Under the pieces are notes generated by a model, which saw only the letters and a list, made by a program, of their open reading frames with translations, was not told the DNA's origin and searched no databases. DNA of 64,000 bases from positions 4,421 through 68,420 of the forward strand of contig CAZJHS010000003.1 of NCBI GenBank assembly GCA_964545895.1. The letters are read 5' to 3'. The stretch is from an uncultured Chitinophaga sp. Lineage in GTDB: Bacteria; Bacteroidota; Bacteroidia; UKL13-3. A program made the translations under genes and the position numbers. Within the stretch, counting starts at the first letter, position 1. Every line of letters starts with the position of its first letter. Positions 5,562 through 48,356 of this stretch are shown here, piece by piece.

Positions 5562-5584
5562 GTAACTACACGTTACATAAAGAG

Positions 5585-5618
5585 ACCGAAAAAAGCCGCA
5601 AATGCGGCTTTTTTCGGT
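5585..5618 (+). terminator. Rho-independent terminator
   Basis: Hairpin accgaaaaaagccgc-aaa-gcggcttttttcggt directly after the stop at 5561. Confidence 0.7.
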
Positions 5619-5722
5619 TAAAAATTGTAAGTGTTTTATTTATAACGATATTGAAATCTATCTAAAAATATGCTGCCAACATATCCGACCGATTTATGGG
5701 CCATGTAAATTAAAATAGAAAC

Positions 5723-7366: not shown

Positions 7367-7387
7367 ACATCAACGAATAAGTGATTA

Positions 7388-7428
7388 AAACCGGCCGCCT
7401 TGAGTTAAACCTCGGGGCGGCCGTTTTG
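7388..7428 (+). terminator. Rho-independent terminator
   Basis: Stem cggccgcc / ggcggccg followed by tttt, 22 nt after the stop at 7366. Confidence 0.6.
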
Positions 7429-7542
7429 CTTTATAAAACTAAATTTCGCTAATTGCGCAAGGCCCATTATATTTACGGCTTAAAGTATAGGCTTGGTGTA
7501 CTATCAAGCTACCTATTTTCGTTTTAGTATTATTATTTTTTA

Positions 7543-8907
7543 ATGAAACAGTTTTTAGCACTTGTTGTAGTAGGCTTAGTAATGTGCTTAGGCACAAATA
7601 CCATGGCACAAGGTCAATTAATTGATGAAATTGCCGCTGTAGTTGGCGAAAACATCATTATGCAATCTGAAATTGAAGTGGAGTTTTTTCAGCTTCAGAA
7701 AGAAATTGGCCAATTAAACGATAGTGCCAAATGCGCTATACTTCGCCAAAAAATTGTAGAACGTATGATGCTTACCCAAGCACAATGGGATAGTTTACCA
7801 CAAAACGATGAGCGGGTAGATATGGAATTGGAAAAGCGTGTAAAATACTTTGCATCGCAGTTTCAGGGTGGCGAAAAGGAAATGGAAAAATACTACGGTA
7901 AAACCGTAGCCGAGATAAAAGCCAGCAACCGAGATAAAATTAAACAAAGCTTATTGGTGCAAGAAATGCAAGGCAAAATTTTACGTGAGGTAAAAGTATC
8001 GCCAACTGATATCAAGAAATTTTACAACGAATTAGATAAGCTTGATAGCCTGCCATACTACAGTGCCGAAGTAGAGTTGGCACAACTTGTAATGACTCCT
8101 AAAGTAAGCAAAGAGGCTAAGCAAATTGCGCTCGAAAAAATTACAGAATTACGTGCACGTATTATGCGTGGCGATAATTTTGGTACCCTTGCTCTTATTT
8201 ACAGCGATGATAAAGGTTCGGCCCAAAACCGCGGTGAGCTTGGTTTTTTTGGTCGTGGTGATATGGTACCCGAGTTTGAAGCAGCCGCTTTTAAGTTAAG
8301 ACCTGATAGCATTTCAAAAATTATTGAAACCAAATATGGCTACCATATTTTGCAGTTAATTGATCGTAAAGGCGAGAACATTAACATCCGCCATATATTA
8401 ATTAAACCACAAATTTTCCGCACGGATATTGCCCGTACCAAAGAGATTATGGACAGTGTACTTTGGTTAGTAAAAATAGACTCGTTAACATTTGAGCAAG
8501 CTGCACAAAAGTTTAGCGATGATGAAAACACCAAAGCAAACGGTGGCTTTATTACTGATGGAAATATTGGATCAACCAAAATACCATTGGACGAATTGCC
8601 TAAAGATATTTATTACACCATTGAAAAATTAGAGCCAGGCCAAACCACCGAGCCTGATTTAATGACCTTGCCTACACCCGATAAACAACAAGCTTGGCGC
8701 GTATTTTACTTAAAATCGCAAAGTGCACCACACCGTGCAAACATGCGCGATGATTATCAAAAATTACAAGCACTAACCTTACAACGTAAGCAAATGTTAG
8801 CCATGCAAAACTGGATTGCCAAACACAAGGATTTATACTTTATACAAATTAGTGATACCTACAAAAACTGCAACAATATTCAAGAGTTTTTAAAGAAAAG
8901 TAACTAA
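7543..8907 (+). CDS. SurA-like peptidyl-prolyl isomerase/chaperone
   Basis: 454 aa with a signal peptide. It has a SurA-N-like region and two parvulin domains (KYGYHILQLID, then IRHILIKP...). Confidence 0.85.
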   Translation: MKQFLALVVVGLVMCLGTNTMAQGQLIDEIAAVVGENIIMQSEIEVEFFQLQKEIGQLNDSAKCAILRQKIVERMMLTQAQWDSLPQNDERVDMELEKRVKYFASQFQGGEKEMEKYYGKTVAEIKASNRDKIKQSLLVQEMQGKILREVKVSPTDIKKFYNELDKLDSLPYYSAEVELAQLVMTPKVSKEAKQIALEKITELRARIMRGDNFGTLALIYSDDKGSAQNRGELGFFGRGDMVPEFEAAAFKLRPDSISKIIETKYGYHILQLIDRKGENINIRHILIKPQIFRTDIARTKEIMDSVLWLVKIDSLTFEQAAQKFSDDENTKANGGFITDGNIGSTKIPLDELPKDIYYTIEKLEPGQTTEPDLMTLPTPDKQQAWRVFYLKSQSAPHRANMRDDYQKLQALTLQRKQMLAMQNWIAKHKDLYFIQISDTYKNCNNIQEFLKKSN

Positions 8908-8913
8908 GCCCAC

Positions 8914-9882
8914 ATGAGCATAACTTATACTAATGATGTAGAAGCAGCAAATGCTTTACATAGCAAATACAAAGAACTTAAGGCAGAAATTGGTAAAGTA
9001 ATTATTGGACAGCACGAAGTAGTTGATGCTGTTTTAATGTCGATTTTTGCTAACGGACATACCTTATTAGTAGGTGTACCTGGCTTGGCTAAAACCTTGT
9101 TGGTACGCACCATTGCCGAGGTACTTGATTTAAACTTTAGCCGCATACAGTTTACACCAGATTTAATGCCGAGTGATATTACTGGTAGCGAAATTTTAAA
9201 CGATAAACGCGAGTTTAGTTTTGTACGCGGACCCTTATTTGCCAATATTGTATTGGCCGATGAGATTAATCGTACACCACCTAAAACACAAGCAGCTTTG
9301 CTCGAGGCCATGCAAGAACGTAACGTTACCGTAAATGGTAAACTGCATAAATTAGAGCAACCATTTTTTGTATTGGCTACACAAAACCCAATTGAGCAAG
9401 AAGGTACCTATCCGTTGCCAGAGGCGCAGCTCGATCGTTTTATGTTTAATGTAATACTTGGTTACCCTACTTTAGAAGAGGAATTACAAGTAATAAAAAA
9501 CACTACTGGAAATAGCACCGCACAGCTTAATAAAATTTTACATGCACAAGATATTTTAGCATTTCAACAATTGGTGCGTAAAGTACCAGTAGCCGATAAT
9601 GTGTTAGAGTATGCAGTAAAATTAGTTGCAAAAACACGCCCAAACACTACCCTAGCAACAGCTAAAGTAAACGAGTACATTAGTTTTGGTGCAGGCCCAC
9701 GTGCTGGGCAGTTTTTAGTTATGGGAGCCAAATGCCATGCCTTAATAAATGGCAAATACAGCCCCGATATAGACGATGTAAAAGCTGTAGCTTACGATGT
9801 ATTGCGCCACCGTGTAGTAAAAAACTACAAGGCCGAGGCCGAAGGCATAAGCATTGAACAAATTATTGATGGCTTGATGTAA
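8914..9882 (+). CDS. MoxR-family AAA+ ATPase
   Basis: 322 aa. It has Walker A GVPGLAKT, Walker B VLADEINR and the typical FFVLATQNPIEQEGTYPLPEAQLDRF. Confidence 0.9.
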   Translation: MSITYTNDVEAANALHSKYKELKAEIGKVIIGQHEVVDAVLMSIFANGHTLLVGVPGLAKTLLVRTIAEVLDLNFSRIQFTPDLMPSDITGSEILNDKREFSFVRGPLFANIVLADEINRTPPKTQAALLEAMQERNVTVNGKLHKLEQPFFVLATQNPIEQEGTYPLPEAQLDRFMFNVILGYPTLEEELQVIKNTTGNSTAQLNKILHAQDILAFQQLVRKVPVADNVLEYAVKLVAKTRPNTTLATAKVNEYISFGAGPRAGQFLVMGAKCHALINGKYSPDIDDVKAVAYDVLRHRVVKNYKAEAEGISIEQIIDGLM

Positions 9883-9891
9883 TAACAGCAC

Positions 9892-10494
9892 ATGAACAGA
9901 ACTTGGGCTATACTGTTATCAACTGTTTTTCATCCGGTATTTATTAACCTACTTAGTTTTATTTTAGTAATAGAACTTACCCCTTATTTACAAGCAGGAT
10001 TTACCCCAGAAGCCAAATGGTTTTATGTGCTGTATGTATTTATTACCACAGGCATGATTCCGTTATTTGTAGTAGTGTTGCGCAAAGCACTAGGGTTTAG
10101 TAAAAGCATTATGCTTGATCATGCCGATGACAGACACATACCTTACATTACAACTGCCATAGCCTATTTAATGGGCTACTACTTTTTTATTAAGCTAGGA
10201 GCGCCACATATTTTACAAGGCTACATGTTGGCCAGTGCCTGTATCATGGTATCTATACTTATTATTAATTTTTATACCAAAATTAGCGCACATGCTACCT
10301 CGCTTGGTGCACTGGTAGGCTTACTTATGGCATTAAGTTCGTATGCTTTGGTTGATGTACGCATTTACCTGGTAGTAACCTTAATTTTAACTGGCCTAAC
10401 CTGCGTAGCTCGCTTGGCATTGCAAGCACACACCCACCAACAAATATACTGGGGTGCTTTTATTGGGTTTATGATGATGTGGTTGGTGATGTGA
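9892..10494 (+). CDS. Polytopic membrane protein (possibly PAP2-like)
   Basis: 200 aa with about 6 TM helices. SAHAT...ARLALQAHTH weakly resembles PAP2 motifs. Its last 21 codons are duplicated at 13181-13247. Confidence 0.6.
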   Translation: MNRTWAILLSTVFHPVFINLLSFILVIELTPYLQAGFTPEAKWFYVLYVFITTGMIPLFVVVLRKALGFSKSIMLDHADDRHIPYITTAIAYLMGYYFFIKLGAPHILQGYMLASACIMVSILIINFYTKISAHATSLGALVGLLMALSSYALVDVRIYLVVTLILTGLTCVARLALQAHTHQQIYWGAFIGFMMMWLVM

Positions 10495-10498
10495 TTTT
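10432..10498. repeat. Direct repeat DR1a (67 bp; 3' end of the membrane-protein gene)
   Basis: acccaccaacaaatatactggggtgcttttattgggtttatgatgatgtggttggtgatgtgatttt matches 13181-13247 at 66 of 67 positions. Confidence 0.95.
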
Positions 10499-10841
10499 AT
10501 ATTGCGAACAAACTAATAGCCAATCCCAACATTTTTATTCTGCTTTCATCATCACATTTTTCTAGTGAAATGATAAAATCGCTCCAGGTAGAAATGGTGT
10601 AATTAAAAGTTATACCACCACCCGCAAGATCCATAACCAACTGTTTATCGCAGTCTAATACATCACAAATTTCAACAAACTGTTGAAGCGGAACAACCTT
10701 TAATTGCCCATTTTCTAATTTAGAATACACGCTGCGCGTAATACCACATTTGTGCGCCACATACTCTTGTTTAAGGGCTTTGCGTTGCCTAATTAATTTA
10801 AGCAGCAAACAAATATTGTTATAGTAGGCTTGTTTGTTCAT
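10497..10841 (-). CDS. XRE-family helix-turn-helix transcriptional regulator
   Basis: It has the HTH_3 pattern LIRQRKALKQEYVAHKCGITRSVYSKLENGQ. I prefer the ATG at 10841 to the TTG at 10862 given in the ORF track. Confidence 0.8.
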   Translation of the reverse strand: MNKQAYYNNICLLLKLIRQRKALKQEYVAHKCGITRSVYSKLENGQLKVVPLQQFVEICDVLDCDKQLVMDLAGGGITFNYTISTWSDFIISLEKCDDESRIKMLGLAISLFAI

Positions 10842-10875
10842 GGAGTATAATAGGTTAAACAAGTTTAATAAAAAT

Positions 10876-10890
10876 GTGCATCACATGCAC
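10876..10890. promoter_or_regulatory. Perfect 6-3-6 palindrome (candidate XRE operator) in the divergent promoter region
   Basis: gtgcat-cac-atgcac lies immediately upstream of the XRE gene. A palindromic gtgcac follows at 10905-10910. Confidence 0.35.
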
Positions 10891-11040
10891 CATATGTTCA
10901 TATTGTGCACGCGATTTTACTTCAAGTAATGCCAAACCAATAATAGTTTTGAGTTGAGTTTACAAAGTGTTACTGCAGAGCATTATTGAAACTTACGGAT
11001 AGCCGAAAACGGATTAGAGTAGGCAATAAATAAATTTAAT

Positions 11041-11448
11041 ATGAAAAAAGTAATTTCATTGTTATTAACAATCATGTCAGGAGTAATGTATGGTTATGGA
11101 CAAACAACATATGTTGTTGAAAACGGAGTAACATACACAAGGATTTTCACAATTCAAGAGTACCAGTCATTAGGGTTAATGGTTGAAGGAGAAGAAGTGG
11201 CTGAAGCTGCAAGAAAGAAGAAATCAGGAACAATTTTGTGGTGTAAAAAAGGTTATGGGTGCTGTTTGTCATCAAGAATTGAAATAGATGGAAATGGTGG
11301 AATTACCGCTATGACTGTTGTTGCCCAAGTTGATGATGAAGGGAATGCGGTACAAGAAACAAGTGGAATCTTTGCTTATTATAATTCAGAATTAGATGAA
11401 GTTATTTATCGTGTTACATCAACACCACCAGCTGTAATCGCAAATTAG
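11041..11448 (+). CDS. Small secreted protein with a WCKKGYGCC cysteine motif
   Basis: 135 aa with a signal-like N-terminus (MKKVISLLLTIMSGVMYGYGQ). An acidic EGEEVAEAA stretch is followed by RKKKSGTILWCKKGYGCC. I recognise no family. Confidence 0.6.
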   Translation: MKKVISLLLTIMSGVMYGYGQTTYVVENGVTYTRIFTIQEYQSLGLMVEGEEVAEAARKKKSGTILWCKKGYGCCLSSRIEIDGNGGITAMTVVAQVDDEGNAVQETSGIFAYYNSELDEVIYRVTSTPPAVIAN

Positions 11449-11458
11449 TATTTAAATA

Positions 11459-11489
11459 ATGCCAACAATTAAATTGTTGGCATTTTATT
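11459..11489 (+). terminator. Hairpin terminator/attenuator between the small gene and the 557-aa gene
   Basis: Stem gccaacaat / attgttggc followed by attttatt, 11 nt after the stop at 11448. Confidence 0.55.
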
Positions 11490-11502
11490 CTTATTTTTAT
11501 TT

Positions 11503-13176
11503 ATGAAACGACTATTATTTTTATTGATTTGCTTTAATCAGTTTAATGTAAACGCTCAGTTTACTGAAAAATTTTATCATTTGGATACTTATGCTGCTGA
11601 AGCAAGTTTTGATTCATTGATACGAAATGAAATTCAAACTCATGATAGCTTGTCAGAGAGCTACTATCTCATAACCTATCCCATATTGGCTGGTGCTACT
11701 AGTTGGGTTCCTCAATTTATCAGGATATTTAATAAAATAAAAAACACAAATAATGATATTGTTATACTCTACTATCTAAATGGGGGATTACGAGAGAAAG
11801 ATATTCCTTTATTTATGAAGGAAAAATTGAAAATGACAGATGCAGACATGAAAAAAGTGAAAACTATTTTTAATGATGAACTTTATACAACCATAAGTAA
11901 TGGGAGAAACTTGGTTAGGCTGCAATATTATTTTAGAAGAAAATTATACTATGATGAGGCGGGAAAATGGCATGATGTTGCAGCAACAAATTTGCCAGAA
12001 GAGAAAATAACTATTAAACAAATAAATAAAATTCAATTAAAAGAAATTGACTCATTGCTCCTATTTGAAAGAGACCAAATTTTTCCTTTTAAAGAAGATA
12101 AATTACTTATTTTAAGTGATGCAAAAAATGAAATCCTAGAACTTGATGTTAATTCAGGAGAAGTAAAACCATTTATCTCAATAAATAAGGTATTTAACGC
12201 TACTGATATATATTGTAAGTATTTTGCGAATGGAGACACCTTAGCTTGTAACTATGCAAAAAAATTGGAACACAAAGTTACTTCAATTGGTAGGCAAACA
12301 TTAAAAATTGATGGAGTTAAAAAAGTGGATGATTTTCTATATCTGTCAGGGGGAATTGAAGCATTTGTTCAAGACAAAAAAGATTATACATTTAAAAATG
12401 AAGAGGGAGAAAAAGTTACTATTGAAGCGAGTGAACCTTCTACATCCTATTTTGGCTTAATATTTAAATACAACTTAATTACTAAGCAATGTGAAATATT
12501 TAGGTTAGAGGAGTTGCCCGAAACTCGGAAAGATTTTCCATTCATTTATCCAGATTGTGGACTTTTTATGAAACAAGATACCATTGTTGCTGGCGTGAAT
12601 ACATGGCATAAAAAAGGTTTAAACACATTTAATTTAATTAATCTAATACCCAAAGATGGCAGCTATAAACCAGCTAATAAATTGGCACCATTAGAGATAA
12701 AATCACCACTATTGGCAGATAATTACAACAAAAGTTTTTTTTATACATTTAATGAACAGCAATACTTTTCCATCAACTTTAGTAAACACATTTACTTAGT
12801 TGGCAGAGAAAAACCACAATCTAGTTTATATGGTAATGGCAGCTCCCCATACAGTATCGAAAAAGTTCCTGACTTTGTGGAGGACACTTCTTCATCACTA
12901 TTGGTAAACTTTTCTATACACGACATGAAGCCAATTTTTAATAACAGGTACTTACTAACTTATTGTGATTTTAAAGGGCAACCTATTTTCGAATTAAAAA
13001 ATCGGATGTTAAAAACCGTTGACATAATAGATGCAAAAAGTATTAAAGGGCTTGAGCGCTATTATTCAAACAACTATAGAATTGATTTACTAATTGATAA
13101 CGATAAGATATATTATAAGAGTATTGATAATGGTGAAATGTTTCTAAATGTATTTTCTATCCTACCAGTCAACTGA
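11503..13176 (+). CDS. Secreted hypothetical protein (N-terminal thioredoxin-like segment without CxxC, then a beta-rich region)
   Basis: 557 aa with a signal peptide (NQFNVNAQ). The segment YYLITYPILAGATSWVPQFIRIFNKIKNTNNDIVILYY resembles the CxxC segment of the 5723-7366 product. It looks AT-rich. Confidence 0.7.
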   Translation: MKRLLFLLICFNQFNVNAQFTEKFYHLDTYAAEASFDSLIRNEIQTHDSLSESYYLITYPILAGATSWVPQFIRIFNKIKNTNNDIVILYYLNGGLREKDIPLFMKEKLKMTDADMKKVKTIFNDELYTTISNGRNLVRLQYYFRRKLYYDEAGKWHDVAATNLPEEKITIKQINKIQLKEIDSLLLFERDQIFPFKEDKLLILSDAKNEILELDVNSGEVKPFISINKVFNATDIYCKYFANGDTLACNYAKKLEHKVTSIGRQTLKIDGVKKVDDFLYLSGGIEAFVQDKKDYTFKNEEGEKVTIEASEPSTSYFGLIFKYNLITKQCEIFRLEELPETRKDFPFIYPDCGLFMKQDTIVAGVNTWHKKGLNTFNLINLIPKDGSYKPANKLAPLEIKSPLLADNYNKSFFYTFNEQQYFSINFSKHIYLVGREKPQSSLYGNGSSPYSIEKVPDFVEDTSSSLLVNFSIHDMKPIFNNRYLLTYCDFKGQPIFELKNRMLKTVDIIDAKSIKGLERYYSNNYRIDLLIDNDKIYYKSIDNGEMFLNVFSILPVN

Positions 13177-13180
13177 TATT

Positions 13181-13247
13181 ACCCACCAACAAATATACTG
13201 GGGTACTTTTATTGGGTTTATGATGATGTGGTTGGTGATGTGATTTT
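13181..13247. repeat. Direct repeat DR1b (67 bp)
   Basis: Second copy of the 3' end of the membrane-protein gene. The single mismatch (10456 g vs 13205 a) would change Ala to Thr. Confidence 0.95.
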
Positions 13248-13377
13248 GTTTATTGGTTAAGCCATACTAATGACTTAAAAAAATCATAATTTACATTGTG
13301 CACATCCATGCGTAATTAAGATTAAAAAACAATAATTAAATTTGAGTTAAGCCATTGGCCAAGCTAAAATTTATACT

Positions 13378-16300
13378 ATGAACCTAAGAGCCCTAATTAC
13401 TTTACTTCTATTACTACCATTAGGTGTTTGTGCGCAGCAATTTACTGATGCAACAGTTATTGGGGGATTAGGTGGCCAAGGCGTAAACAATATTTATCAT
13501 GATAATATTGGAAACAAATATGTGTTGCTTTTCTCAGACAAGCCAATTACAATTGATAGCTCGGGAACCCCGATTACTATAACTAGTAATTCAAGAGAGT
13601 ATGCGCTCATAAAGTATTCTAATAAAAATAAGTATTTACACCACATAAGTATTAAACGAGTTTGGCCAAATAGTAGTTTTGTTGTTTCATTTACCTCCCA
13701 AAACGACCTTCTGCTTTCTTGCTCTTTTAATCATCGTGATACCATAGAACTTTATCATTCCAACAGATTATTATATAAACAGTTAATTATCAGAAATGGA
13801 ACTCCACCTTTAGCTCGTAACATTGCAGTTTTCATTACTAAAATTAGCTCAAGTGGGCAGTTCTTATGGACCTCGTTCATCAATAAATTAAACGCCAATT
13901 ACACTCAACAAGGTGCAATTGAAGTTGGCGTTTATTGCCACTCCGATACTGCTATTTATGTTAGTTTTAGTAGTGACCAATTAACAAATAGCATTGATAC
14001 TATTTTAGTAACTAATAACACAAATCAATCCGATACTATTTTTTCCAATAAGGTATCAATCATTGTTAAACTTAATCAACAAGGCAAGTTACTTACCTAT
14101 ATCGAACCGCTTAAATCTTTAAAACATTTTCAACAAGATTCAGCACTTATAAGAACATTTAAAATAGCTAAAATTAATAACAATATTTACTTCGTATTAA
14201 ATGCAACAATTACAACTCCAGATAGTATTGTTGGATTAAGTCAAACCACACCAATTGATACCGGCACTGTTTATTTACTTTTTAAAATGAACCTTACAGA
14301 TAGCATAGTTTGGGCAAAAGAAATAGTAGTAAATCATACCGGACCACAAGTACAATATCCAATTATTGACTTGAGTTCTGATACGGTGAATAATCATTTA
14401 CTTTTAGCTATTGATTTTGACCCGTATCGCAACGAAATGAAATTGTTTAGTTCCAACGCAAGCTTCGGAACTTATTTGAGCAAAATTGATGAACAAGGGA
14501 ATCCGGTTTGGAGCGAATTTCTGAACAACATTAGATACCCTACCTACAAAAAAAACTATACTAATAAACAATCCGTTCTAATTGGAGAAACGGTCTATCC
14601 AAATGGATATTTTCAGCATTATTTACCATACAACCAACTTGGCATTCGAACAACTTTTATTGCTTTTCAAGATAGCATGAACAGGTTTTTTAATGCACAA
14701 AGCATTCACGCTAATCAAGTAACCTTCAGCAGCACCTTATCAATATCAGGCATATCTATTAGTCCAAATGGTAAAGTAGCAGTTGGTGGTTCATTTTTGG
14801 ACAGCATCTCATTACCCTGTAGAACTATCCAAGCCACACTTGATTACAGCGACTACGGACAAAAACTATCTGATGGCTTTTTATTAGAATACAGCCCAAT
14901 ATTGGCAATTGATACTGCTGTTTGTAAAAGAATGATATCGCCTAGCGGTAAATACACTTGGGATAGTACTGCCTATTATTTTGATACCATACCTAATAAA
15001 TTGGGCTGCGATAGTACCCTATTGTTTTATGTGAAGGTAATGCAAGATAAAGTTTCAATTGACACTACTGTTAAAGTAAGCATGCAATCGCCAAGTGGTA
15101 AATATATTTGGGATAGCACCGCAACCTATACCGATACCCTGACTAATACTTTTGGATGTGATAGTATACTTACTTTTAATGTAAAGGTGTTACAAAACAG
15201 CACTTTTATTGACACTTCGGTTTGTTTGTTTTTTAAACTTAGCACAAGTTTAAAAGCATTTTACCAAACAGGTAATTTTATTGATACCCTAACCAACCGC
15301 TTGGGGGGCGATAGTATTGTTTACATTAAACTTACCATACTTAAAAGTACTGCAATTATTGATACCTCGTTTTGCAATAAAATACTAAGCCCTAGTGGTA
15401 AGTTTTGGTTAAACAATACAGGCGCGTATACCGATACATTAATGAACAAGCATAATTGTGATAGTATAATCGCCATTAGGTTTACACGCTTACCCATGAT
15501 GGATACAATTCGGCTATCTGCATGTAAACCATTAGGCAGCCCTAGTGGTAAGTTTGTTATGAATGAAACCCGTTGGTATACCGATACATTAGTGAGTAGT
15601 AAAGGTTGCGACAGCATACTACAAATTGACTATACGCAAATACGTATTACCGATACCATTGTTTTAGCCAATTGTAATGCGGCTTTAAGTCCAAGCAATA
15701 AATTTGTAATGCAACAAAGCGGCTGGTATACCGATACCCTTATAACCACCAATGGTTGCGATAGTATAATACGTATAAATTTTACGCTTTTAAAATCAGC
15801 TAGTAGTATTGTGCTGGTTGCTTGCGATAGCCTTATATCGCCTAGTGGTAAATTAGTTTTTAATGCACCTGGAGTTTATACCGATACAATAACAAATGCT
15901 GCAGGTTGTGATAGTATTATTACCATTAATTTAACTTTTTCTAATTCGCAAATAAGCGTTTCAAAATCAAATGATATTAGTTGCGAAAACCAAAGCGCTG
16001 TATTAACCGCATCGGGTGGTAGTGTTTATGTTTGGCAACCATCAACAGGGTTATCAAACACGCAAATTAGCAATCCCATTGCTAACCCCCACCAAACTAC
16101 TCAATACACAGTAATTGCTACTGATGCCTACGGTTGTAAACTTTCAGATACGATATCGGTTTATGTAAATATATTAGATAGTGTTAACAATATACCAAAT
16201 GTAATTACACCAAATAATGACGGATTAAACGACTGCATTTCGGCAGAAAATATCGCTCAATTTAACACTTGCTCATTTGTTATTTTATCGCGCTGGGGTA

Positions 16301-16458
16301 ATGTTGTTTGGCAAACCAACAATCCTAAAAATAATTGGTGCGGCACTACCGAAAACGGACAAGAAACAGCCGAAGGAACATACTATTATATACTTAAAGG
16401 CACAACGCTTTGTAATCAAAAAATTAATAGTACGGGTACAATTACAGTTATTAGGTAG
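13378..16458 (+). CDS. Large secreted protein with a T9SS type B (gliding-motility CHU_C) C-terminal sorting domain
   Basis: 1026 aa with a signal peptide. It contains seven 50-aa Cys-containing repeats. The C-terminus is IPNVITPNNDGLNDC...GTYYYILKG...TGTITVIR. Confidence 0.85.
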   Translation: MNLRALITLLLLLPLGVCAQQFTDATVIGGLGGQGVNNIYHDNIGNKYVLLFSDKPITIDSSGTPITITSNSREYALIKYSNKNKYLHHISIKRVWPNSSFVVSFTSQNDLLLSCSFNHRDTIELYHSNRLLYKQLIIRNGTPPLARNIAVFITKISSSGQFLWTSFINKLNANYTQQGAIEVGVYCHSDTAIYVSFSSDQLTNSIDTILVTNNTNQSDTIFSNKVSIIVKLNQQGKLLTYIEPLKSLKHFQQDSALIRTFKIAKINNNIYFVLNATITTPDSIVGLSQTTPIDTGTVYLLFKMNLTDSIVWAKEIVVNHTGPQVQYPIIDLSSDTVNNHLLLAIDFDPYRNEMKLFSSNASFGTYLSKIDEQGNPVWSEFLNNIRYPTYKKNYTNKQSVLIGETVYPNGYFQHYLPYNQLGIRTTFIAFQDSMNRFFNAQSIHANQVTFSSTLSISGISISPNGKVAVGGSFLDSISLPCRTIQATLDYSDYGQKLSDGFLLEYSPILAIDTAVCKRMISPSGKYTWDSTAYYFDTIPNKLGCDSTLLFYVKVMQDKVSIDTTVKVSMQSPSGKYIWDSTATYTDTLTNTFGCDSILTFNVKVLQNSTFIDTSVCLFFKLSTSLKAFYQTGNFIDTLTNRLGGDSIVYIKLTILKSTAIIDTSFCNKILSPSGKFWLNNTGAYTDTLMNKHNCDSIIAIRFTRLPMMDTIRLSACKPLGSPSGKFVMNETRWYTDTLVSSKGCDSILQIDYTQIRITDTIVLANCNAALSPSNKFVMQQSGWYTDTLITTNGCDSIIRINFTLLKSASSIVLVACDSLISPSGKLVFNAPGVYTDTITNAAGCDSIITINLTFSNSQISVSKSNDISCENQSAVLTASGGSVYVWQPSTGLSNTQISNPIANPHQTTQYTVIATDAYGCKLSDTISVYVNILDSVNNIPNVITPNNDGLNDCISAENIAQFNTCSFVILSRWGNVVWQTNNPKNNWCGTTENGQETAEGTYYYILKGTTLCNQKINSTGTITVIR
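14923..15972 (+). repeat. 7 x 150-bp in-frame tandem repeat (C..SPSGK[YF]..W....YTDT..N..GCDSI)
   Basis: Units start at Cys codons from 14923 to 15823, with an average period of exactly 150 bp. The third unit (CLFFKLSTSLKAF...GGDSI) is degenerate. Confidence 0.85.
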
Positions 16459-16518
16459 CTAGTTTAATTTTGCCTATCATTATTTAATATTATAAACCCA
16501 AACTCATAACACCTTTTA

Positions 16519-16624
16519 CATCCATGCCTTTATCTAAAACCATTATTACTTTTATATTTAGCATTTGCAGCTTCTTGTTTCTTTCGTGCGGAAAATTGTA
16601 CCTAAAAGCTACTGGTGTAAAACC
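16519..16624. repeat. Direct repeat DR2a (106 bp; copy of the 5' end of the lipoprotein gene at 18343)
   Basis: Matches 18338-18443 at 105 of 106 positions, with a constant offset of 1819 bp. Confidence 0.95.
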
Positions 16625-16628
16625 ATAA
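16524..16628 (+). pseudogene. Truncated duplicate of the lipoprotein gene 5' end (signal peptide/lipobox only)
   Basis: MPLSKTIITFIFSICSFLFLSCGKLYLKATGVKP followed by a stop. Homology to the 18343 gene ends abruptly at 16624. Confidence 0.7.
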
Positions 16629-16720
16629 ACGTTACTGATTTTGACATGGGCTTATACATTGTACGTTTAGTGATAGACGACCAAACCGTTGCTAATACAA
16701 TACTCAATTATTCAAATTAA
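16628..16720 (+). pseudogene. 3' remnant of a T9SS C-terminal sorting domain gene
   Basis: Translates as NVTDFDMGLYIVRLVIDDQTVANTILNYSN plus stop. It resembles the last strands of the CTDs elsewhere in this window (GLYYLKINTPKGVIVKKIVKD, GIYFVKFTL...). It has no upstream body and keeps its own terminator. Confidence 0.55.
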
Positions 16721-16733
16721 TTTTATAATTTCG

Positions 16734-16767
16734 AAACACCGCGTATTATAAAATACGCGGTGTTTTT
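16734..16767 (+). terminator. Rho-independent terminator of the remnant gene
   Basis: Stem aacaccgcgtat / atacgcggtgtt followed by ttttt. Confidence 0.7.
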
Positions 16768-16778
16768 ATTTAACTCCC

Positions 16779-18296
16779 ATGAAAAAAAATTGGCTATTAC
16801 TAGTAATTATATTCTTTACCCAATTGTTAAAGGCGCAAAATACACAGTTGTTTCACAATAGGGATAGTACTAGCAGCAGAGTTATACTTTTATCTACTGG
16901 CTCTGATAATAGTTCACTATATAGTTTAAGTTGGCACTTACCAATTGATTCGATTCAGGATAATAATCGATTTTATTATAAGATAAAAAAAATTGACACA
17001 TCGGGAAATTTATTAGCGGCAAACGAAATTTATAAGAATGGAAAATTAAACGCCAGTTATCAACCAAGTACACCAAATCAAACTGACTTTGTTATTGTTG
17101 AAAACAGTGACACCTCAGAAAACTCTGTATACTACATAAACTATATTAAAAGTAATTTAAAAGTTGATAGTTTTATTTTACCGTTAATTGGTAAAACCCC
17201 ATATCTGTTTACCTATTGCAAACACAATGATAAGCTAATCATCATTTCATCAGACAGTAGAACTCTTGGAAACAAGGCATACGTAACCATTGCAGATACA
17301 CTTGGTAATGAAATTAAAACACAAAGATTCCTTTACGAATACTTTTATAATCAAACCAACCAAATAAGCATTACTCCGCTATGCTTGATTAGCGATGGAA
17401 ATGGAGGATTTATATCTGGTGGATGGTATGATACAGCTTCACAAGAAACCAAAATAAACTTGTTTAGAATTGATAGTTTGGGAAATAAAACTTGGGAGTA
17501 TAAAGAAACACGGATTGGAGGTTCTTTTATAAAAGGCATGCAGCTATTGCCTGATAAAACCATTTTAGCTTATGGAGCTTATGGAGATTTAATGTACTTG
17601 GCCAAGTTTAGTCAACAAGGTCAATTACTTAACGAAAATTTTTATTATCCAGGTGGTTTTATCGATCGTACAAGTGGCCGTTGCAATATTATTAATGTTA
17701 AAATAATTGATGGATATATATATGCCGTTGGTGGATCGCACAATATGTTTAAAGCACTTAATACATACACCGATTTGGGTACGCTTTTAAAAACAGACTT
17801 AGATGGTAAACCCATTTGGGCCAAGCAATTTGGCAATTATTATGGTTACAATATTCTAGATCAAATTTACCAAACATCAAATAGCCGATTGTTGTTGGCA
17901 GGGCTTGGTGTTGACAGCACACAAATGCCTTTACATGGAGTAAGCTGGTATGTAAGTACTGATACTGCTGCTAACGAAAACCTGCCTTGGTGCCAATTAG
18001 TAAATGTTGAGCGGTATTATCCATTTACGGGTATTAACGAGGTAAGTAGTTTGGGTTCAATGATACAAGTATATCCAAACCCAACAAATGGTGAGTTAAC
18101 CATTAAAAATCCCTTACAACTAGCTATTAACCAAATTCAATTTTATGACGGAAATGGTACACTTTGCCACACCCAATTATTTGATGAGCCAAACGCCCAG
18201 TTTAATATTGATGTTACTTATTTAAAACAAGGATTGTATTACTTAAAAATAAACACACCTAAGGGTGTTATAGTAAAAAAAATTGTAAAAGATTAA
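16779..18296 (+). CDS. T9SS type A sorting domain-containing secreted protein
   Basis: 505 aa with a signal peptide. The CTD is IQVYPNPTNGELTIKN...GLYYLKINTPKGVIVKKIVKD. Confidence 0.85.
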   Translation: MKKNWLLLVIIFFTQLLKAQNTQLFHNRDSTSSRVILLSTGSDNSSLYSLSWHLPIDSIQDNNRFYYKIKKIDTSGNLLAANEIYKNGKLNASYQPSTPNQTDFVIVENSDTSENSVYYINYIKSNLKVDSFILPLIGKTPYLFTYCKHNDKLIIISSDSRTLGNKAYVTIADTLGNEIKTQRFLYEYFYNQTNQISITPLCLISDGNGGFISGGWYDTASQETKINLFRIDSLGNKTWEYKETRIGGSFIKGMQLLPDKTILAYGAYGDLMYLAKFSQQGQLLNENFYYPGGFIDRTSGRCNIINVKIIDGYIYAVGGSHNMFKALNTYTDLGTLLKTDLDGKPIWAKQFGNYYGYNILDQIYQTSNSRLLLAGLGVDSTQMPLHGVSWYVSTDTAANENLPWCQLVNVERYYPFTGINEVSSLGSMIQVYPNPTNGELTIKNPLQLAINQIQFYDGNGTLCHTQLFDEPNAQFNIDVTYLKQGLYYLKINTPKGVIVKKIVKD

Positions 18297-18298
18297 CG

Positions 18299-18325
18299 GC
18301 TACTCACACACAAAATAAAAGTCTC
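18299..18325. repeat. Direct repeat DR3a (27 bp; copy of the 3' end of the FkbM methyltransferase gene)
   Basis: gctactcacacacaaaataaaagtctc matches 19020-19046 at 26 of 27 positions. On the minus strand it still encodes DFYFVCE-stop, and the mismatch is synonymous (GAC vs GAT). Confidence 0.85.
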
Positions 18326-18337
18326 TTCATAAAACTT

Positions 18338-18443
18338 CATCCATGCCTGTATCTAAAACCATTATTACTTTTATATTTAGCATTTGCAGCTTCTTGTTTC
18401 TTTCGTGCGGAAAATTGTACCTAAAAGCTACTGGTGTAAAACC
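18338..18443. repeat. Direct repeat DR2b (106 bp)
   Basis: Copy that forms the 5' end of the lipoprotein gene. See DR2a. Confidence 0.95.
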
Positions 18444-19006
18444 TTTTAAGCCAGTAATAGAACAGCAATTAATTAGTTACTTAAGCAAACAAGGTGTTAA
18501 ACAAGAGCGTATTTATGAAGTAGATTCTGTTCGTTTTAACGAGTTGCTTACATGATACATTAGTTTACACTAAGCCCAACTGGTGGATTCAAAATCATAT
18601 TCAACCTATACAAACCGTATGTTTTGATAATGCTACTAAAAAGCCACTGTATGCGTATTTTAATTGTATTGCAGAAAGTAAAGGGTTAACTCAATTTACT
18701 TGGAATAAATTTCAGGAGCTAGAATCGTTTCCGCCCAAAGAATATACCTCATACCGTTGGATAGACACCTTATTTACATTAAATGAATTAACCAATACAT
18801 TTGTTGATTTTAAAGGAAATTCAATTGTGTTGAACAATAACGAGAAAAAGTATACTGTATTTATTTACTACTCATTATTTGTAGAGAAGCAAGCCAACAA
18901 TTTGATAAGAGAAACGCTTACTCACCTCAACACTTTTATACCAAACGACTATAATGTGTACTTTATCAATTTTGATAATGCACTGTATCAGCTAAGTACT
19001 AATTAG
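18343..19006 (+). pseudogene. Lipoprotein gene interrupted by a frameshift
   Basis: Frame 0 runs from 18343 to the stop at 18553-18555 and includes the lipobox FLSCG. A second frame, offset +1, is open from 18524 to the stop at 19004-19006, adding about 150 aa (LHDTLVYTKPNWWIQNH...NALYQLSTN) with no start codon of its own. Confidence 0.6.
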
Positions 19007-19019
19007 GTTATACCCAACA

Positions 19020-19046
19020 GCTACTCACACACAAAATAAAAATCTC
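19020..19046. repeat. Direct repeat DR3b (27 bp; authentic 3' end of the methyltransferase gene)
   Basis: See DR3a. Confidence 0.85.
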
Positions 19047-19767
19047 CTTGTTCGTAGTTTAAGGCATTGGCACGTGTAAGTTCGCTTAGCTTACCTTGTT
19101 GCAGTTGCATAATTTTGTAGCCCAAAGGCAAAAACAAATCAAAAATAGTTGCTCTATTTTCGGGGCTGCTAATTTCCATTTGTATGGTAGGTTTAAACTT
19201 AGCAATTGTTTTTATAAAATGAGGCATCAAAAAAACTTCATAGCCTTCTACATCGCACTTTAAAAAATCAAACCTGGTTAAATGGGCAAATAATTCGTCA
19301 GGAATTTGCATGGCAACTTGGTAAGTATGCATGTTAGCCTCCTGCGCGTGGCTATCAATAACCTTTGTTAAACCGTGTCTAAAAACCCCATCAACCATGG
19401 GTGTGCCCATTTGTATGGTTTTATGCTCGCCACCTAATGCAGTTTGGTGCAGGGTAATATTACCTAAACCAAATTGAGTTACATTTTTTCTGAAAATGCT
19501 GGCAAATAAATCAACTGGTTCAACCGCATGTACATGTCCATTTGCACCTGCATATTGCGATAAAAACACCGAGTAGTAACCTACATTAGCACCAATATCA
19601 ACACAAACAAAACCTGGCTTTACTAATTGTTGTAAAAAGAATAATTCGGGATATTTTTTCTTTAAAAATCCCGAGCGTATTAAACGAATATAAACCTCGC
19701 TAACCAAGGCCAAGTATTTCTGATGTCCTAATACATCAAGCAGTAATGCGCGTAATTGTTTTTCCAT
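19021..19767 (-). CDS. FkbM-family methyltransferase
   Basis: 248 aa with the SAM-binding motif VCVDIGANVGYYS and FLKCDVEGYE. Confidence 0.8.
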   Translation of the reverse strand: MEKQLRALLLDVLGHQKYLALVSEVYIRLIRSGFLKKKYPELFFLQQLVKPGFVCVDIGANVGYYSVFLSQYAGANGHVHAVEPVDLFASIFRKNVTQFGLGNITLHQTALGGEHKTIQMGTPMVDGVFRHGLTKVIDSHAQEANMHTYQVAMQIPDELFAHLTRFDFLKCDVEGYEVFLMPHFIKTIAKFKPTIQMEISSPENRATIFDLFLPLGYKIMQLQQGKLSELTRANALNYEQGDFYFVCE

Positions 19768-19788
19768 GTATGTGTAAACCCTTTGGGC

Positions 19789-20040
19789 TTATTTCAATTC
19801 TTCATAATCCACGTACTCGCCAAGCTTTTTATCGGTTGGTTTTTTGGTGGTGTTGTTTATGTTAGGGTTAATGGTAATTTTTCCTTCGGGCTCGTTGGTT
19901 GAGTTGCTTTGGTTATAATGATGGTGGTGCGTATCGTATCTATACACTTTAGTTTTAATGGTGTTGCCACCCATTAACTTACCAAATACCAAACGCGATA
20001 ACACGTAAAACAAAAACAGGTATAATAAAAACTTTATCAT
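19789..20040 (-). CDS. DUF4834-like small membrane protein
   Basis: 83 aa with an N-terminal TM helix and a C-terminal GEYVDYEELK tail, as I recall for DUF4834. Confidence 0.6.
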   Translation of the reverse strand: MIKFLLYLFLFYVLSRLVFGKLMGGNTIKTKVYRYDTHHHHYNQSNSTNEPEGKITINPNINNTTKKPTDKKLGEYVDYEELK

Positions 20041-20096
20041 GTGCTTAAATTATGCGGTGGCAAAGGTACACTTTCTTGCCTAGCAATCAACCCCCA

Positions 20097-20927
20097 TTAA
20101 CCTATAATATTGGCATGTTTGCTGGCTACTGCGTGTCCTAAAAAGTTACCTGCTTGTGCGTTAAAATTCTTAGTATCATCAGTAGTTAAGTATTGGTGTG
20201 TACCACCTTTGCTGCAATACTGTTCCAACTCTGGGTGACGATTCAAGTAATCAACCAAACTATTTGCCACTATTTGCCCTTGGGTTAAAATAGTAATGTG
20301 TGCAGGAGTGTATTTACGAATCTTGTCAACCAATAAAGGATAATGAGTACAGCCCAATAAAATAGTATCAATTTGGGGTGATGATGCCAACAAAGAATCA
20401 ATGTGTTTTTGCACAAAATAATCGGCACCAGCGCCTGTATGCTCGTTGTTCTCTACCAACGGAACCCACATGGGGCAAGCTTCTTGAAACACCTGTACTT
20501 GCGGATAAAACTTATTTATCTCAACCACATACGATTGAGAAATAACTGTGCCTTTGGTAGCAAACACCCCCACTTGATTGGTTTTGGTGTATTTACCTAC
20601 AATTTCGGTTGTTGGACGTATTACACCTAAAACACGCAAATGATTTTCGAGCAGCGGTAAATCCTTTTGCTGTATAGTGCGCAATGCCTTTGCCGAGGCT
20701 GTATTACAAGCCAGTACCACCAAGCTACATCCTTGGTTAAACAAATGCTTTACACATTGTAAGGTGTACTCGTAAACGGTATCAAAACTACGTGTACCGT
20801 ATGGTGCACGAGCGTTATCGCCCAAATACAAGTAATCGTATTGGGGCAGTGTATGTATAAACTCCTTTAATACAGTTAATCCACCATAACCGCTATCAAA
20901 CACACCAATTGGTCCGGGTTTTATCAT
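20097..20927 (-). CDS. murI: Glutamate racemase
   Basis: Motifs PIGVFDSGYGGLTV, VLACNTASA and LGCTHYP. I prefer the ATG at 20927. The ORF-track start at 20966 is a TTG. Confidence 0.9.
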   Translation of the reverse strand: MIKPGPIGVFDSGYGGLTVLKEFIHTLPQYDYLYLGDNARAPYGTRSFDTVYEYTLQCVKHLFNQGCSLVVLACNTASAKALRTIQQKDLPLLENHLRVLGVIRPTTEIVGKYTKTNQVGVFATKGTVISQSYVVEINKFYPQVQVFQEACPMWVPLVENNEHTGAGADYFVQKHIDSLLASSPQIDTILLGCTHYPLLVDKIRKYTPAHITILTQGQIVANSLVDYLNRHPELEQYCSKGGTHQYLTTDDTKNFNAQAGNFLGHAVASKHANIIG

Positions 20928-23793: not shown

Positions 23794-24044
23794 AAAATAT
23801 TTCTGTGCTAAAAAAGCTGTGCAAGATAAACCTTTAGCATGCACAATTCCTTGATAATTAAATCAAATTATCATTAAATTTATGCAAACGGAGTTTTAAT
23901 TACTGCCAATTTTAAATGCTTCAGCATGATGCTCTTTGCTCAAACTATTACATTTTTGGCTTTGATTTTCAGACGTTTATTAAATTTATTGGAAATAGGT
24001 GTAACTTTACCTACCTCATTTGCGTACTACCATCGCCCCCAATA

Positions 24045-31510: not shown

Positions 31511-31858
31511 ATGGAATTAAACGAATTGATGGTAATAATTGAAAACTATCCGATAGCAAAAGTTTTGCATACTACACAGAACGGTAGTGAATACACCTTT
31601 CAAGGATTAGCAATCAGTAGAGGTTCGAATGCCATTAAATATTTTATTCCAACAAGGAACGGAAATGGAAACAACGCCAAACGAGTAATTATAAATGAGC
31701 TACTTTTATACATAAACGAATATCTAAATACGGGCCAACATCCAAATAGCTTTTGGATTAACAATAATCTAATCAATGCAAAAAAAGATGGAGGTTGCAA
31801 CATTTGTGTCATCAGAAAATTAGCATCAGAGATAATCTACAATCACATCAACTTATGA
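31511..31858 (+). CDS. Hypothetical protein
   Basis: About 115 aa from the ATG at 31511. Its stop overlaps the start of the next gene (ATGA at 31855-31858). Confidence 0.45.
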   Translation: MELNELMVIIENYPIAKVLHTTQNGSEYTFQGLAISRGSNAIKYFIPTRNGNGNNAKRVIINELLLYINEYLNTGQHPNSFWINNNLINAKKDGGCNICVIRKLASEIIYNHINL

Positions 31859-48301: not shown

Positions 48302-48356
48302 ATTTTTGACACATGCTTGAAATAAACACAACTCTGCTAAATTTGTAAGCATAACA

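Follow-up and report, generated by a model that had tools for sequence, protein, structure and literature searches.

We wanted to understand how several genes for secreted proteins came to stand in a row between two conserved genes, accompanied by duplicated ends of their neighbors, in a 64-kb stretch of DNA (the window) from an uncultured wastewater Bacteroidota bacterium. The two anchor genes, here called P and M (Table 1), are convergent, and the hotspot is the interval between them. The initial annotation had described gene-sized units stacked between two anchors without an integrase or attC-like sites, three repeat pairs that are each a duplicated gene terminus, a gene remnant, a frameshifted gene, and two T9SS sorting domains, one of type A and one of type B. 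The remnant, the frameshift, and both sorting domains proved to be real, and the remaining parts of the description were borne out by the searches reported below. The accompanying explanation, homology-anchored capture of foreign cassettes, stood only in part.

Table 1. Features of the P-M interval and its anchors (positions in the window)
Feature	Position	Strand	Remarks
Left anchor P, PAP2-like membrane protein gene	9892-10494	+	200 aa, intact; weak PAP2 match
Repeat copy 1 of P 3' terminus, 67 nt	10432-10498	+	Inside intact P gene
HTH regulator gene, XRE-type	10497-10862	-	Abuts P stop codon; HTH_3 E=1.9e-9; left portion of cassette A, of long standing
135-aa secreted protein gene (cassette A)	11041-11448	+	Without Pfam match
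557-aa secreted protein gene (cassette A)	11503-13176	+	GC 0.30, most AT-rich gene of island
P', orphan copy of last 67 nt of P, between cassettes A and B	13181-13247	+	
Cassette B, 1026-aa T9SS type-B (CHU_C) protein gene	13378-16458	+	CHU_C E=1.4e-20; 50-aa internal repeats
Lp native upstream region and Lp' (orphan first 34 codons of Lp)	16485-16624	+	Repeat copy 16519-16624
Remnant, last ~30 codons of lost type-A T9SS cargo gene	16625-16720	+	
Terminator-like hairpin of lost cargo gene	16734-16765	+	Read from sequence; conserved in L027, L032, L001
Cassette C, 505-aa β-propeller protein gene, type-A T9SS sorting domain	16779-18296	+	Por_Secre_tail E=2.3e-12
M', orphan copy of M 3' terminus	18295-18325	+	31 nt, possibly ~40 nt with 4-nt gap
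Lipoprotein gene Lp	18343-19006	+	18338-19006 with repeat copy 18338-18443; inactivated by 11-nt deletion
Right anchor M, FkbM-family methyltransferase gene	19021-19767	-	Methyltransf_21 E=3.9e-13; repeat copy 19016-19046 at 3' end

Scanning the whole window for repeats (seed 14, length of at least 28 nt) confirmed the three pairs and revealed exactly three families of long direct repeats in the 64 kb, all of them at the hotspot, so that their clustering there is not due to chance. The P-terminus repeat (10432-10498 and 13181-13247; 66 of 67 nt identical) consists of the last 63 nt of P and 4 further nt, the Lp repeat (16519-16624 and 18338-18443; 105 of 106 nt identical) consists of 5 nt and the first 34 codons of the lipoprotein gene, and the M-terminus repeat (18295-18325 and 19016-19046; 29 of 31 nt identical) is the 3' end of M, which lies on the minus strand. 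Between the start of P' and the M terminus, similarity does not exceed that of shuffled sequence. With relatives included, fragments of the anchors measure 23, 31-40, 67, ~105, and 118 nt, derive from both the P side and the M side, and occur in four lineages.

Comparison with related contigs (designated by L numbers) confirmed that the P-M interval is a genuine hotspot, the content of which varies by strain and species, with secreted-protein genes both swapped and stacked. P adjoins MoxR in every relative examined, and P and M are conserved on contigs on which the gene content between them is hypervariable. We directly observed at least nine distinct arrangements. The interval is empty (P/M) in three lineages (L030, L038, and L007, the last over only 29 nt); elsewhere, it contains a lipoprotein gene (P-Lp-M in L004, L009, and L011), a single β-propeller T9SS gene or a pair of them, or composite stacks, as in L002, L001, and the window. 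The remaining alleles read P-C1-C2-M (L028), P/M'/remnant-C-M (L032), P-A-M'-Lp'-remnant-C-M (L027), and P-HTH-391aa-B (L029). Across these contigs, the boundaries of presence and absence coincide with the repeats; cassette C, for example, is present in the window and absent from L002, and the difference is bounded exactly by the 106-nt repeat.

Because the 135-aa and 557-aa genes of cassette A are ~95% identical in nucleotide sequence to those of L027, as against ~78% for the flanking core MoxR-P, the comparison supports the view that this part of the cassette has moved between species. The encoded proteins share 97% and 95% of their amino acids, respectively, with the L027 copies, and P shares only 73.5%. 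The tract of high identity starts in the intergenic region between the HTH and 135-aa genes and extends precisely as far as cassette A does on the right, to where the 557-aa gene has its 3' end. The XRE-type HTH gene also lies beside P in L029 and L027 and is a pseudogene in L033. We note separately that cassette A, which ends at the same point on the right in L027 and the window, could be a discrete mobile unit. For the 1026-aa protein of cassette B, the sole close homologue is in L029 (72% amino acid identity), and no further full-length relatives were found.

Another account of the repeats is local tandem duplication followed by divergence without DNA from other cells. A true tandem pair does exist, C1/C2 in L028, the duplicated unit of which begins 23 nt before the P stop codon. 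In the window, however, the genes that lie between the repeats are unrelated to one another, with no homology detected among cassettes A, B, and C; the 135-aa and 557-aa genes are far closer to another species' copy than their flanks are; and an imported divergent tract sets L001 apart from the window (see below). We thus regard local duplication as extremely unlikely.

The island (10499-18337) has a GC content of 32.9%, compared with 36.9% in the rest of the window, and its five genes lie at 0.30-0.35, whereas 55 ORFs average 0.370 (sd 0.027). The AT richness that the initial annotation had judged by eye is thus real, but it is modest and is matched by secreted-protein genes elsewhere in the window (5723-7366, GC 0.29; 54833-56359, GC 0.31). 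Further, sorting-domain T9SS cargo genes number six in the window; such cargo is common throughout it, and its presence in the hotspot is therefore only mildly special. N termini resembling signal peptides, as read by eye, are present on the 135-, 557-, 1026-, and 505-aa proteins.

To the right of cassette B, the interval contains several broken genes. The segment that carries Lp' and the native upstream region of Lp matches the empty-state contigs L004 and L009, and in L004 and L011, which have the P-Lp-M allele, Lp is itself the resident gene. In the window, Lp is frameshifted by an 11-nt deletion (AAAAAAGAAAG) after 18551 relative to the intact 224-aa alleles of L001, L002, and L004. The remnant encodes ...NVTDFDMGLYIVRLVIDDQTVANTILNYSN followed by a stop codon, the final part of a C-terminal T9SS domain of type A, and L032 holds a longer version of it with a breakpoint that differs from that of the window. 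Cassette C, in which the N-terminal third of the 505-aa protein is hypervariable, immediately adjoins M in L027, L028, and L032. The left neighbor of the junction between M' and the Lp upstream region is the 557-aa gene in L027 and cassette C in the window and L001, and Lp' is decayed in L001 and L027 but matches Lp at 105 of 106 nt in the window. These varying neighbors, together with the uneven decay of Lp', point to later homologous exchange within short patches.

We considered whether such a stack could be an assembly chimera of coexisting strains with alternative alleles. The data are metagenomic, and several alleles of one species occur across the public metagenomes searched, which makes it plausible that one sample contained strains differing in their allele. 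Further, the 106-nt repeat of the window is nearly exact, and no independent contig spanning it was found to confirm the path of the window there. However, the P' junction (13180/13181) recurs in five independent assemblies from different samples and assemblers, L020 reproduces window positions 16595-18379 at 100% identity, and the full stack is present on the 191-kb contig L001, where Lp' is decayed and therefore unambiguous. K-mer graph misjoins, moreover, cannot make junctions that share ≤8 nt. A chimera is thus exceedingly improbable.

L001 also provides the sole event for which both parental junction sequences are known; the window junctions 13180/13181 and 16624/16625 are ambiguous for microhomology. 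L001 and the window are 99-100% identical over 8000-16399 and 17266-20254, and between these regions (16400-17265) identity falls to 39-85% per 200-nt window, with the lowest value dominated by gaps. This marks an imported tract of ~750 nt, from 16459 to ~17205. At its right end, the dense differences stop at ~17205, at a homologous crossover inside the 505-aa gene. At its left end is a junction unique to L001 among the contigs examined, where the region downstream of cassette B (...GTTTAATTTT) is joined to P'', the terminal 118 nt of a donor P, across an 8-nt microhomology, TTAATTTT, common to the B side and to native P (CTTAATTTTAAC...). One homologous crossover and one new junction thus enclose the tract, and the new junction carries a microhomology of a few bases, as in homology-facilitated illegitimate recombination (HFIR). 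Truncation of resident genes at junctions, a further feature of HFIR, is seen in the remnant and in Lp'. That P'' starts at the microhomology identifies it as something that the event itself produced. The proposed role of the short repeats as the substrate of capture was not supported: the crossover in L001 lies inside a resident gene and not in a repeat, and the duplicated anchor terminus is donor flank brought in at the illegitimate end. This event leads us to conclude that one-ended recombination of the HFIR type between alternative alleles left the duplicated termini, in the main, as scars.

More generally, we consider it fairly probable that the stack arose by HFIR-type recombination between alternative P-M alleles without mobile-element genes. 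Different strains and species hold alternative gene-content alleles in the interval, and donor DNA from a relative with another allele would recombine with that of the resident. Each event would combine a homologous crossover, placed in a flank or resident gene common to both, with an illegitimate join at the opposite end, at the level of microhomology and at a nonallelic position. Incoming DNA would begin or finish inside the donor's shared anchor gene and would therefore leave a fragment of an anchor (P', P'', or M') or of a resident gene (Lp' or the remnant) at the junction, each event adding genes rather than replacing them. The fragments and shared genes would then offer extra sites at which homologous recombination could add, exchange, or delete cassettes, and they may well have been reused later as short homology. 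What we infer here rather than observe is the sequence in which the events occurred, how the DNA entered the cell, and the reuse of short fragments by RecA. The "foreign" cassettes of the initial annotation are mostly other alleles of this locus, derived from relatives, and not arbitrary foreign DNA.

The initial annotation had also proposed circular intermediates. Cassettes would circularize, for example by recombination between direct repeats or after uptake, and RecA would integrate them Campbell-style through patches of 31-118 nt, which would make the repeats capture sites. L027 (A-M'-Lp'-remnant-C-M) and the window (Lp'-remnant-C-M'-Lp-M) indeed appear to hold the unit [Lp'-remnant-C-M'] in two circular permutations, as expected if one circle integrated through two different patches, and the exact bounding of the L002 difference by the 106-nt repeat agrees with this. 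A clean Campbell insertion, however, leaves resident genes whole, and the truncated remnant and Lp' instead fit one-ended illegitimate recombination. In L001, the homologous end is within cassette C rather than a repeat, and P'' begins at a microhomology. Further, an illegitimate event would still be needed to form each circle's first junction, and a circular junction was not observed. We therefore find this account rather unlikely. A related view, in which the orphan P, M, and Lp termini are portable recombination sites rather than mere scars and cassettes are repeatedly excised (possibly as circles), permuted, and reinserted by RecA or a trans-acting recombinase, seems to us quite unlikely; if true, it would amount to an integrase-free, integron-like cassette system diversifying the T9SS and surface proteome of these Bacteroidota.

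The P copies raise a further alternative, in which site-specific integrative elements insert at the P 3' end, and possibly at that of M, and accrete in tandem by means of an integrase encoded elsewhere; the cassettes would be remnants or satellites of these elements without an integrase of their own. P is intact and is followed in L001 by partial 3' copies (67 and 118 nt) after cassettes A and B, as in attL/attR arrays; all P copies stop at one nucleotide; and the right boundary of cassette A is the same in two species. The copies, including that of 23 nt in L028, have their terminal ~20 nt in common, and there may therefore be a site-specific core at the P terminus. However, M' and Lp' are copies of other genes, so that these duplicates and the truncated genes require another mechanism; P'' starts at the 8-nt microhomology with the preceding cassette; and the cross-species tract begins between the HTH and 135-aa genes rather than at the P terminus. 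Nor was a cognate integrase found in cis: integrase and transposase domains were absent from the hotspot genes, from the precomputed Pfam annotation of the flanks (~9 kb upstream of P and ~10 kb beyond M), and from 20 further ORFs of the window, and the long contigs of relatives showed no integrase up to ~10 kb from the locus. No tRNA genes or Rfam matches were found, and an inverted-repeat search revealed no inverted repeats, attC-like palindromes, or conserved motifs at cassette ends, the sole hairpins being ordinary terminators at 11458-11484 and downstream of the remnant. We consider tandem accretion very doubtful. Competence or conjugation genes were likewise not seen in the 64-kb window.

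The initial annotation had regarded the locus as an under-described route, and in general terms this did not hold up: the process matches HFIR, minimal mobile elements, and MGE-free hotspots (PMC5361080, PMC1797815, and PMC5635113). The locus does not fit an integron, as no intI-type tyrosine recombinase was found in the hotspot, flanks, and 20 further ORFs and no attC palindromes at the boundaries. The hotspot does share with integrons and tandem accretion a cassette array beside a fixed point with short repeated sequences between cassettes, but it is without intI and attC hairpins, its cassettes carry their own upstream regions and terminators, and its repeats vary in length and come from three different genes. 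HFIR itself (de Vries & Wackernagel 2002, Prudhomme et al. 2002, and Meier & Wackernagel 2003, as cited in PMC5361080) has also been described in E. coli conjugation (PMC3240628). It combines a homologous end with an illegitimate microhomology end, adds foreign sequence, and often truncates resident DNA, and L001 shows all three; the differences are that we deduce it from natural variation, not experiment, and that the foreign DNA here is another allele of the very locus it enters, with duplication of fragments of the shared anchors as the result. In Neisseria minimal mobile elements (Saunders & Snyder 2002, as cited in PMC1797815) and MGE-free hotspots of horizontal transfer (PMC5635113), as here, varied whole-gene cassettes lie between the same conserved gene pair without mobility genes and are exchanged by homologous recombination in the flanks, leaving a mosaic of flank identity; our profiles (L027, ~95% versus ~78%; L001, 99-100% versus 39-85%) bear such signs in both flanks and cassettes. 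Classical minimal mobile elements replace one another, whereas here alleles also add up and leave junction scars, and the host is an uncultured Bacteroidota bacterium without known competence. Also similar are the sequential displacement arrays of Vibrio cholerae T6SS effector-immunity genes and Rhs/CDI orphan C-terminal modules, for which HFIR is the mechanism proposed in PMC5361080 (and references therein), with later spread by homologous recombination. There, too, gene-sized modules lie beside a conserved anchor without an integrase, and partial 3' ends of displaced genes persist. The present hotspot differs in that it is without evident toxin-immunity logic, duplicates fragments of both flanking genes with stacking from both sides of the intergenic site, and carries T9SS, lipoprotein, and other secreted-protein genes. 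Overall, the process is already known and is seen now in another bacterial group; what is new is that such gene stacking is documented for T9SS cargo in Bacteroidota.

The interval between a gene for a PAP2-like membrane protein (P) and an FkbM methyltransferase gene (M) holds three cassettes (A, B, and C), a lipoprotein gene (Lp), and orphan copies of gene termini (P', M', and Lp'), which are listed in the table. The initial annotation had claimed three repeat pairs here; all three are present, each copies a gene terminus, and the 64-kb window contains no other direct repeats of 28 nt or more. The GC content of the island is 32.9%, compared with 36.9% in the remaining window, and five of its five genes lie under the window mean. 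Equally AT-rich genes for secreted proteins exist elsewhere in the window, and we rejected the low-GC genes outside the island as cassette paralogues, as they have T9SS tails alone in common. Six genes in the window encode T9SS sorting domains (B, C, and those at 21277-23844, 31855-33135, 54833-56359, and 60575-63496), so T9SS cargo in the hotspot is expected rather than remarkable; a repeat scan of the window found no repeats flanking the four such genes outside the hotspot.

Features of the P-M interval in window coordinates
Feature	Position	Description	Placement
P-terminus repeat	10432-10498 / 13181-13247	67 nt, 66/67 identical; final 63 nt of P (9892-10494) plus 4 nt
Lp-start repeat	16519-16624 / 18338-18443	106 nt, 105/106 identical; 5 nt plus initial 34 codons of Lp (18343-19006)
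M-terminus repeat	18295-18325 / 19016-19046	31 nt, 29/31 identical; 3' end of M (19021-19767, minus strand)
Cassette A		XRE-type HTH gene (minus strand), 135-aa gene, 557-aa gene	first after P
P'		orphan P-terminus copy	between cassettes A and B
Cassette B		1026-aa gene; CHU_C (T9SS type B)	between P' and Lp'
Lp'		orphan copy of Lp start	between B and remnant
Remnant		96 nt; piece of type-A T9SS C-terminal domain, own terminator	between Lp' and C
Cassette C		505-aa gene; Por_Secre_tail (type A)	between remnant and M'
M'		orphan M-terminus copy	between C and Lp
Lp		inactivated by 11-nt deletion	last unit before M
Candidate operator sites (ATTGTGCAC, palindrome)	10876-10910 and 13295-13303

Contigs for comparison, all of them metagenomic, were collected by exact-protein and homologue look-ups and mapped with tblastn and blastn. 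The window comes from an uncultured member of the Bacteroidota. At least one contig with an identical P protein is labelled as activated-sludge metagenome, and the relatives come from MAGs that bear the label Bacteroidia or Bacteroidetes bacterium. A 22-mer of the P terminus gave two chance matches only against metagenome contigs, and a scan of genome contigs with P gave three loci, L011 being the sole useful one. Among the contigs (amino acid identity of P to that of the window in brackets), P adjoins M in L030 (72%), L038 (60%), and L007, which is from the same species and in which just 29 nt of M are visible. The order is P-Lp-M in L004 and L009 (same species) and in L011 (70%); P-HTH pseudogene-179 aa-Lp-M in L033 and L034 (65%); P-C1-C2-M, with two genes of the C family, in L028 (71%); P/M' (40-105 nt)/longer remnant-C-M in L032 (75%); P-A-M'-Lp' (decayed)-remnant-C-M in L027 (73.5%); and P-HTH-391 aa T9SS gene-B in L029 (92%). 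Within the species, L002 reads P-A-P'-B-Lp-M, the window has the full stack P-A-P'-B-Lp'-remnant-C-M'-Lp-M, and L001 has this full stack with a third P fragment of 118 nt (P'') added after B. Further, M is absent from L037, where P is followed directly by a DUF4834 gene (L037 8001-8856), indicating that the right anchor is itself dispensable. Given these varied arrangements, neither synteny nor repeat structure is conserved across relatives; the condition that the initial annotation had set for its own refutation does not hold, and its proposal of a hotspot stands. Orphan fragments of anchor termini were found in four lineages, namely the window's species, L027 (M'), L032 (M', as a 40-nt repeat), and L028, in which the duplicated unit begins 23 nt ahead of the P stop codon. 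Local duplication with divergence fits C1 and C2 of L028 and nothing beyond them, and we regard it as a very improbable account of the locus.

The left side of P is also variable, as a CotH-domain T9SS cargo gene lies between MoxR and P in two lineages (L027 4935-6449 and L030 8426-9991); the window has a 9-nt gap (9883-9891) and no gene at this position. A second small islet at 5562-7429, between two peptidyl-prolyl isomerase genes, consists of a 180-aa gene and a 547-aa gene (GC 0.29, signal peptide-like start); both are missing from the equivalent position in L027, L030, and L037, and no flanking repeats were found. We also note that the block of genes for EF-Ts, ribosomal proteins S2, S9, and L13, and a two-component system, located at 46158-53119 and ∼40 kb from SurA-MoxR-P in the window, is directly upstream of SurA-MoxR-P in L011, L028, and L033. 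In L002, the SurA-like gene (7487-8828; window ∼8400-8600) is split by an indel into ORFs of 318 and 106 aa, and the HTH gene (10418-10861; window ∼10600-10900) is called as 147 rather than 114 aa in a divergent and gapped region.

We consider it probable that alternative alleles of this one hotspot recombined again and again, each time with one homologous and one illegitimate end, and that ordinary homologous recombination then spread, permuted, and deleted units. One such event can be reconstructed by comparing L001 with the window. The two are 99-100% identical in all 200-nt windows over 8000-16399 and 17266-20254 and 39-85% identical over 16400-17265, the lowest value coming from a gap-dominated 200-nt window; the dense differences start right downstream of B and end at ∼17205 within gene C. 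At the left junction, L001 reads GGTAGCTAGTTTAATTTT joined to AACTAGCCTAACC, followed by 118 nt of the 3' end of P and the native P-Lp intergenic sequence. At the same site, the window and L002 read GTTTAATT(TT) and then other sequence, and native P reads CTTAATTTTAACTGGCCTAACC, so that the new junction shares the 8-nt microhomology TTAATTTT. The comparison therefore defines an imported tract with a homologous end inside C and, at its other end, a new junction with 8 nt of microhomology. P'' is donor flank and nothing more. The anatomy of the tract, as read from the alignment, bears the signature of homology-facilitated illegitimate recombination (HFIR) and gives a direct view of the way in which a terminus becomes duplicated. 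L001 probably represents the derived state, because the adjacency of B and the Lp upstream sequence seen in the window is also present in L002. With only 8 nt shared, the L001 junction, judged from its sequence, cannot be a k-mer graph chimera. Junctions also recur in independent assemblies, and assembly chimerism can hardly be the source of the island; the window's route through the near-exact 106-nt repeat is spanned by no independent contig.

The L001 event is the only one reconstructed, and for the A/P' (13180/13181) and Lp'/remnant (16624/16625) junctions not both parental sequences are known here. Similarity to the M terminus was rejected as the cause of the start of P': it gave the best local match on the junction, but 232 of 500 shuffles reached its score. 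The remnant is the tail end of a T9SS gene, now lost, from upstream of C. It is joined to Lp' at a breakpoint common to the window, L001, and L027, and in L032 it is ∼40 nt longer and joined to M'. Resident genes cut short at the non-homologous end, such as the remnant, are again what HFIR yields. C directly adjoins M in L027, L028, and L032, so the M' that trails C in the window is donor flank. The left neighbor of the junction of M' with the Lp upstream sequence is the 557-aa gene in L027 and C in both the window and L001. Deletions have eroded Lp' in L001 and L027, but the copy in the window is one base off Lp. Later homologous exchange within short patches would most simply explain both this junction and the state of Lp'. 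Campbell-type capture of circles via the repeats keeps some weight, because a circular intermediate would also be expected to give these M'/Lp-upstream neighbors and a near-identical Lp' in the window; it is weak on the truncated genes and on the anatomy of the L001 event, and we think it rather unlikely. The initial annotation, which had proposed homology-anchored capture of foreign cassettes, was careful in its observation, which is real, and partly borne out in its interpretation: the repeats seem to have served as recombination patches in the later reuse of fragments, but the homologous end in L001 lies inside C. What we infer is the order in which the events took place, whether the ancestral interval was empty or HTH-bearing, and how DNA entered the cell.

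Comparison with L027 points to transfer between species. Amino acid identity to the window is 97% for the 135-aa protein and 95% for the 557-aa protein, compared with 73.5% for P, 88% for MoxR, 81% for M, and 77% for C. At the nucleotide level, identity is ∼78% over MoxR-P, ∼85% over most of the HTH gene (65-70% at its P-proximal end), and ∼95% from ∼10950 through the 557-aa gene, at whose end it collapses; past this point, the window carries P' and L027 carries M'. Because the identity of the 135-aa and 557-aa genes is far above that of the flanks, this sub-cassette must have moved between the species in the relatively recent past. Of the two ends of the transferred tract, one lies in sequence common to both and the other where common sequence stops.

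No integrase or transposase domains were detected in the hotspot genes, in 20 further window ORFs, or in the precomputed Pfam annotation of the flanks (∼9 kb upstream of P and ∼10 kb beyond M). tRNA and Rfam scans gave no matches, and the cassette boundaries carry no inverted repeats. Integrase-less site-specific elements at the P terminus may apply to A and B, but they leave M', Lp', and the remnant unexplained and have no integrase nearby, which makes them decidedly unlikely. A defense system was rejected, as the PADLOC matches were to generic HTH and methyltransferase proteins only. The 64 kb contain exactly two occurrences of ATTGTGCAC, one upstream of the 135-aa gene and the other of B; this is no more than chance predicts, and we dropped it as operator-motif evidence. 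ATTGTGCAC and the palindrome GTGCATCACATGCAC, which adjoins the HTH gene, may be candidate operators for the HTH regulator.

Neither the 135-aa nor the 557-aa protein has a Pfam match, and for the 557-aa protein there is no PDB sequence match either. B encodes a repeat-rich type-B T9SS protein; beyond the species, only L029 has a close full-length homologue. At 14919-15934 of B, at least 6-7 units of 150 nt (50 aa) are arrayed in tandem, their motif being SPSGK...YTDTL.N..GCDSI, and the L029 homologue carries the 50-aa repeats too. C is a β-propeller followed by a T9SS sorting domain; its structure model is of only moderate confidence (pLDDT 68), the best matches by fold are propeller domains, and no specific function follows from the model. 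The N-terminal part of the C family is hypervariable, across the family at roughly residues 80-200; C1 and C2 of L028 (10001-13131) are identical at both ends and ∼45% identical (by eye) over residues ∼60-240, and C of L001 differs from that of the window mainly within the first ∼140 codons (window 16779-17205). This pattern suggests that a surface propeller is under diversifying selection or has its alleles shuffled.

Most transfer hotspots that are free of mobile elements are explained only statistically, through recombination in flanking core genes, and to our knowledge recombination-driven gene gain in Bacteroidota is little documented. Because the P-M locus has kept its junction scars and includes a near-identical pair one event apart, the molecular steps can be read directly, and in natural, uncultured populations. 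The locus shows how alternative alleles can be added together instead of replaced, in this case among the secreted and T9SS-sorted proteins of Bacteroidota, and orphan fragments of gene termini could be a searchable signature of such events in metagenomes. HFIR has been defined by experiment, both for bacteria that can be transformed and for conjugation in E. coli (PMC3240628; references in PMC5361080), and HFIR-like sequential displacement has been proposed to have built the arrays of T6SS effector-immunity modules in Vibrio and those of Rhs loci (PMC5361080). In the minimal mobile elements of Neisseria, the flanking genes are fixed, the cassettes between them alternate, and mobility genes are lacking (PMC1797815), and many horizontal-transfer hotspots lack mobile elements and show recombination in flanking core genes (PMC5635113). 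The P-M locus is not an integron; it works like HFIR, displacement arrays, minimal mobile elements, and mobile element-free hotspots, whose testable features it shares, and clearly exemplifies, in nature and in a new setting, a process that is already known.
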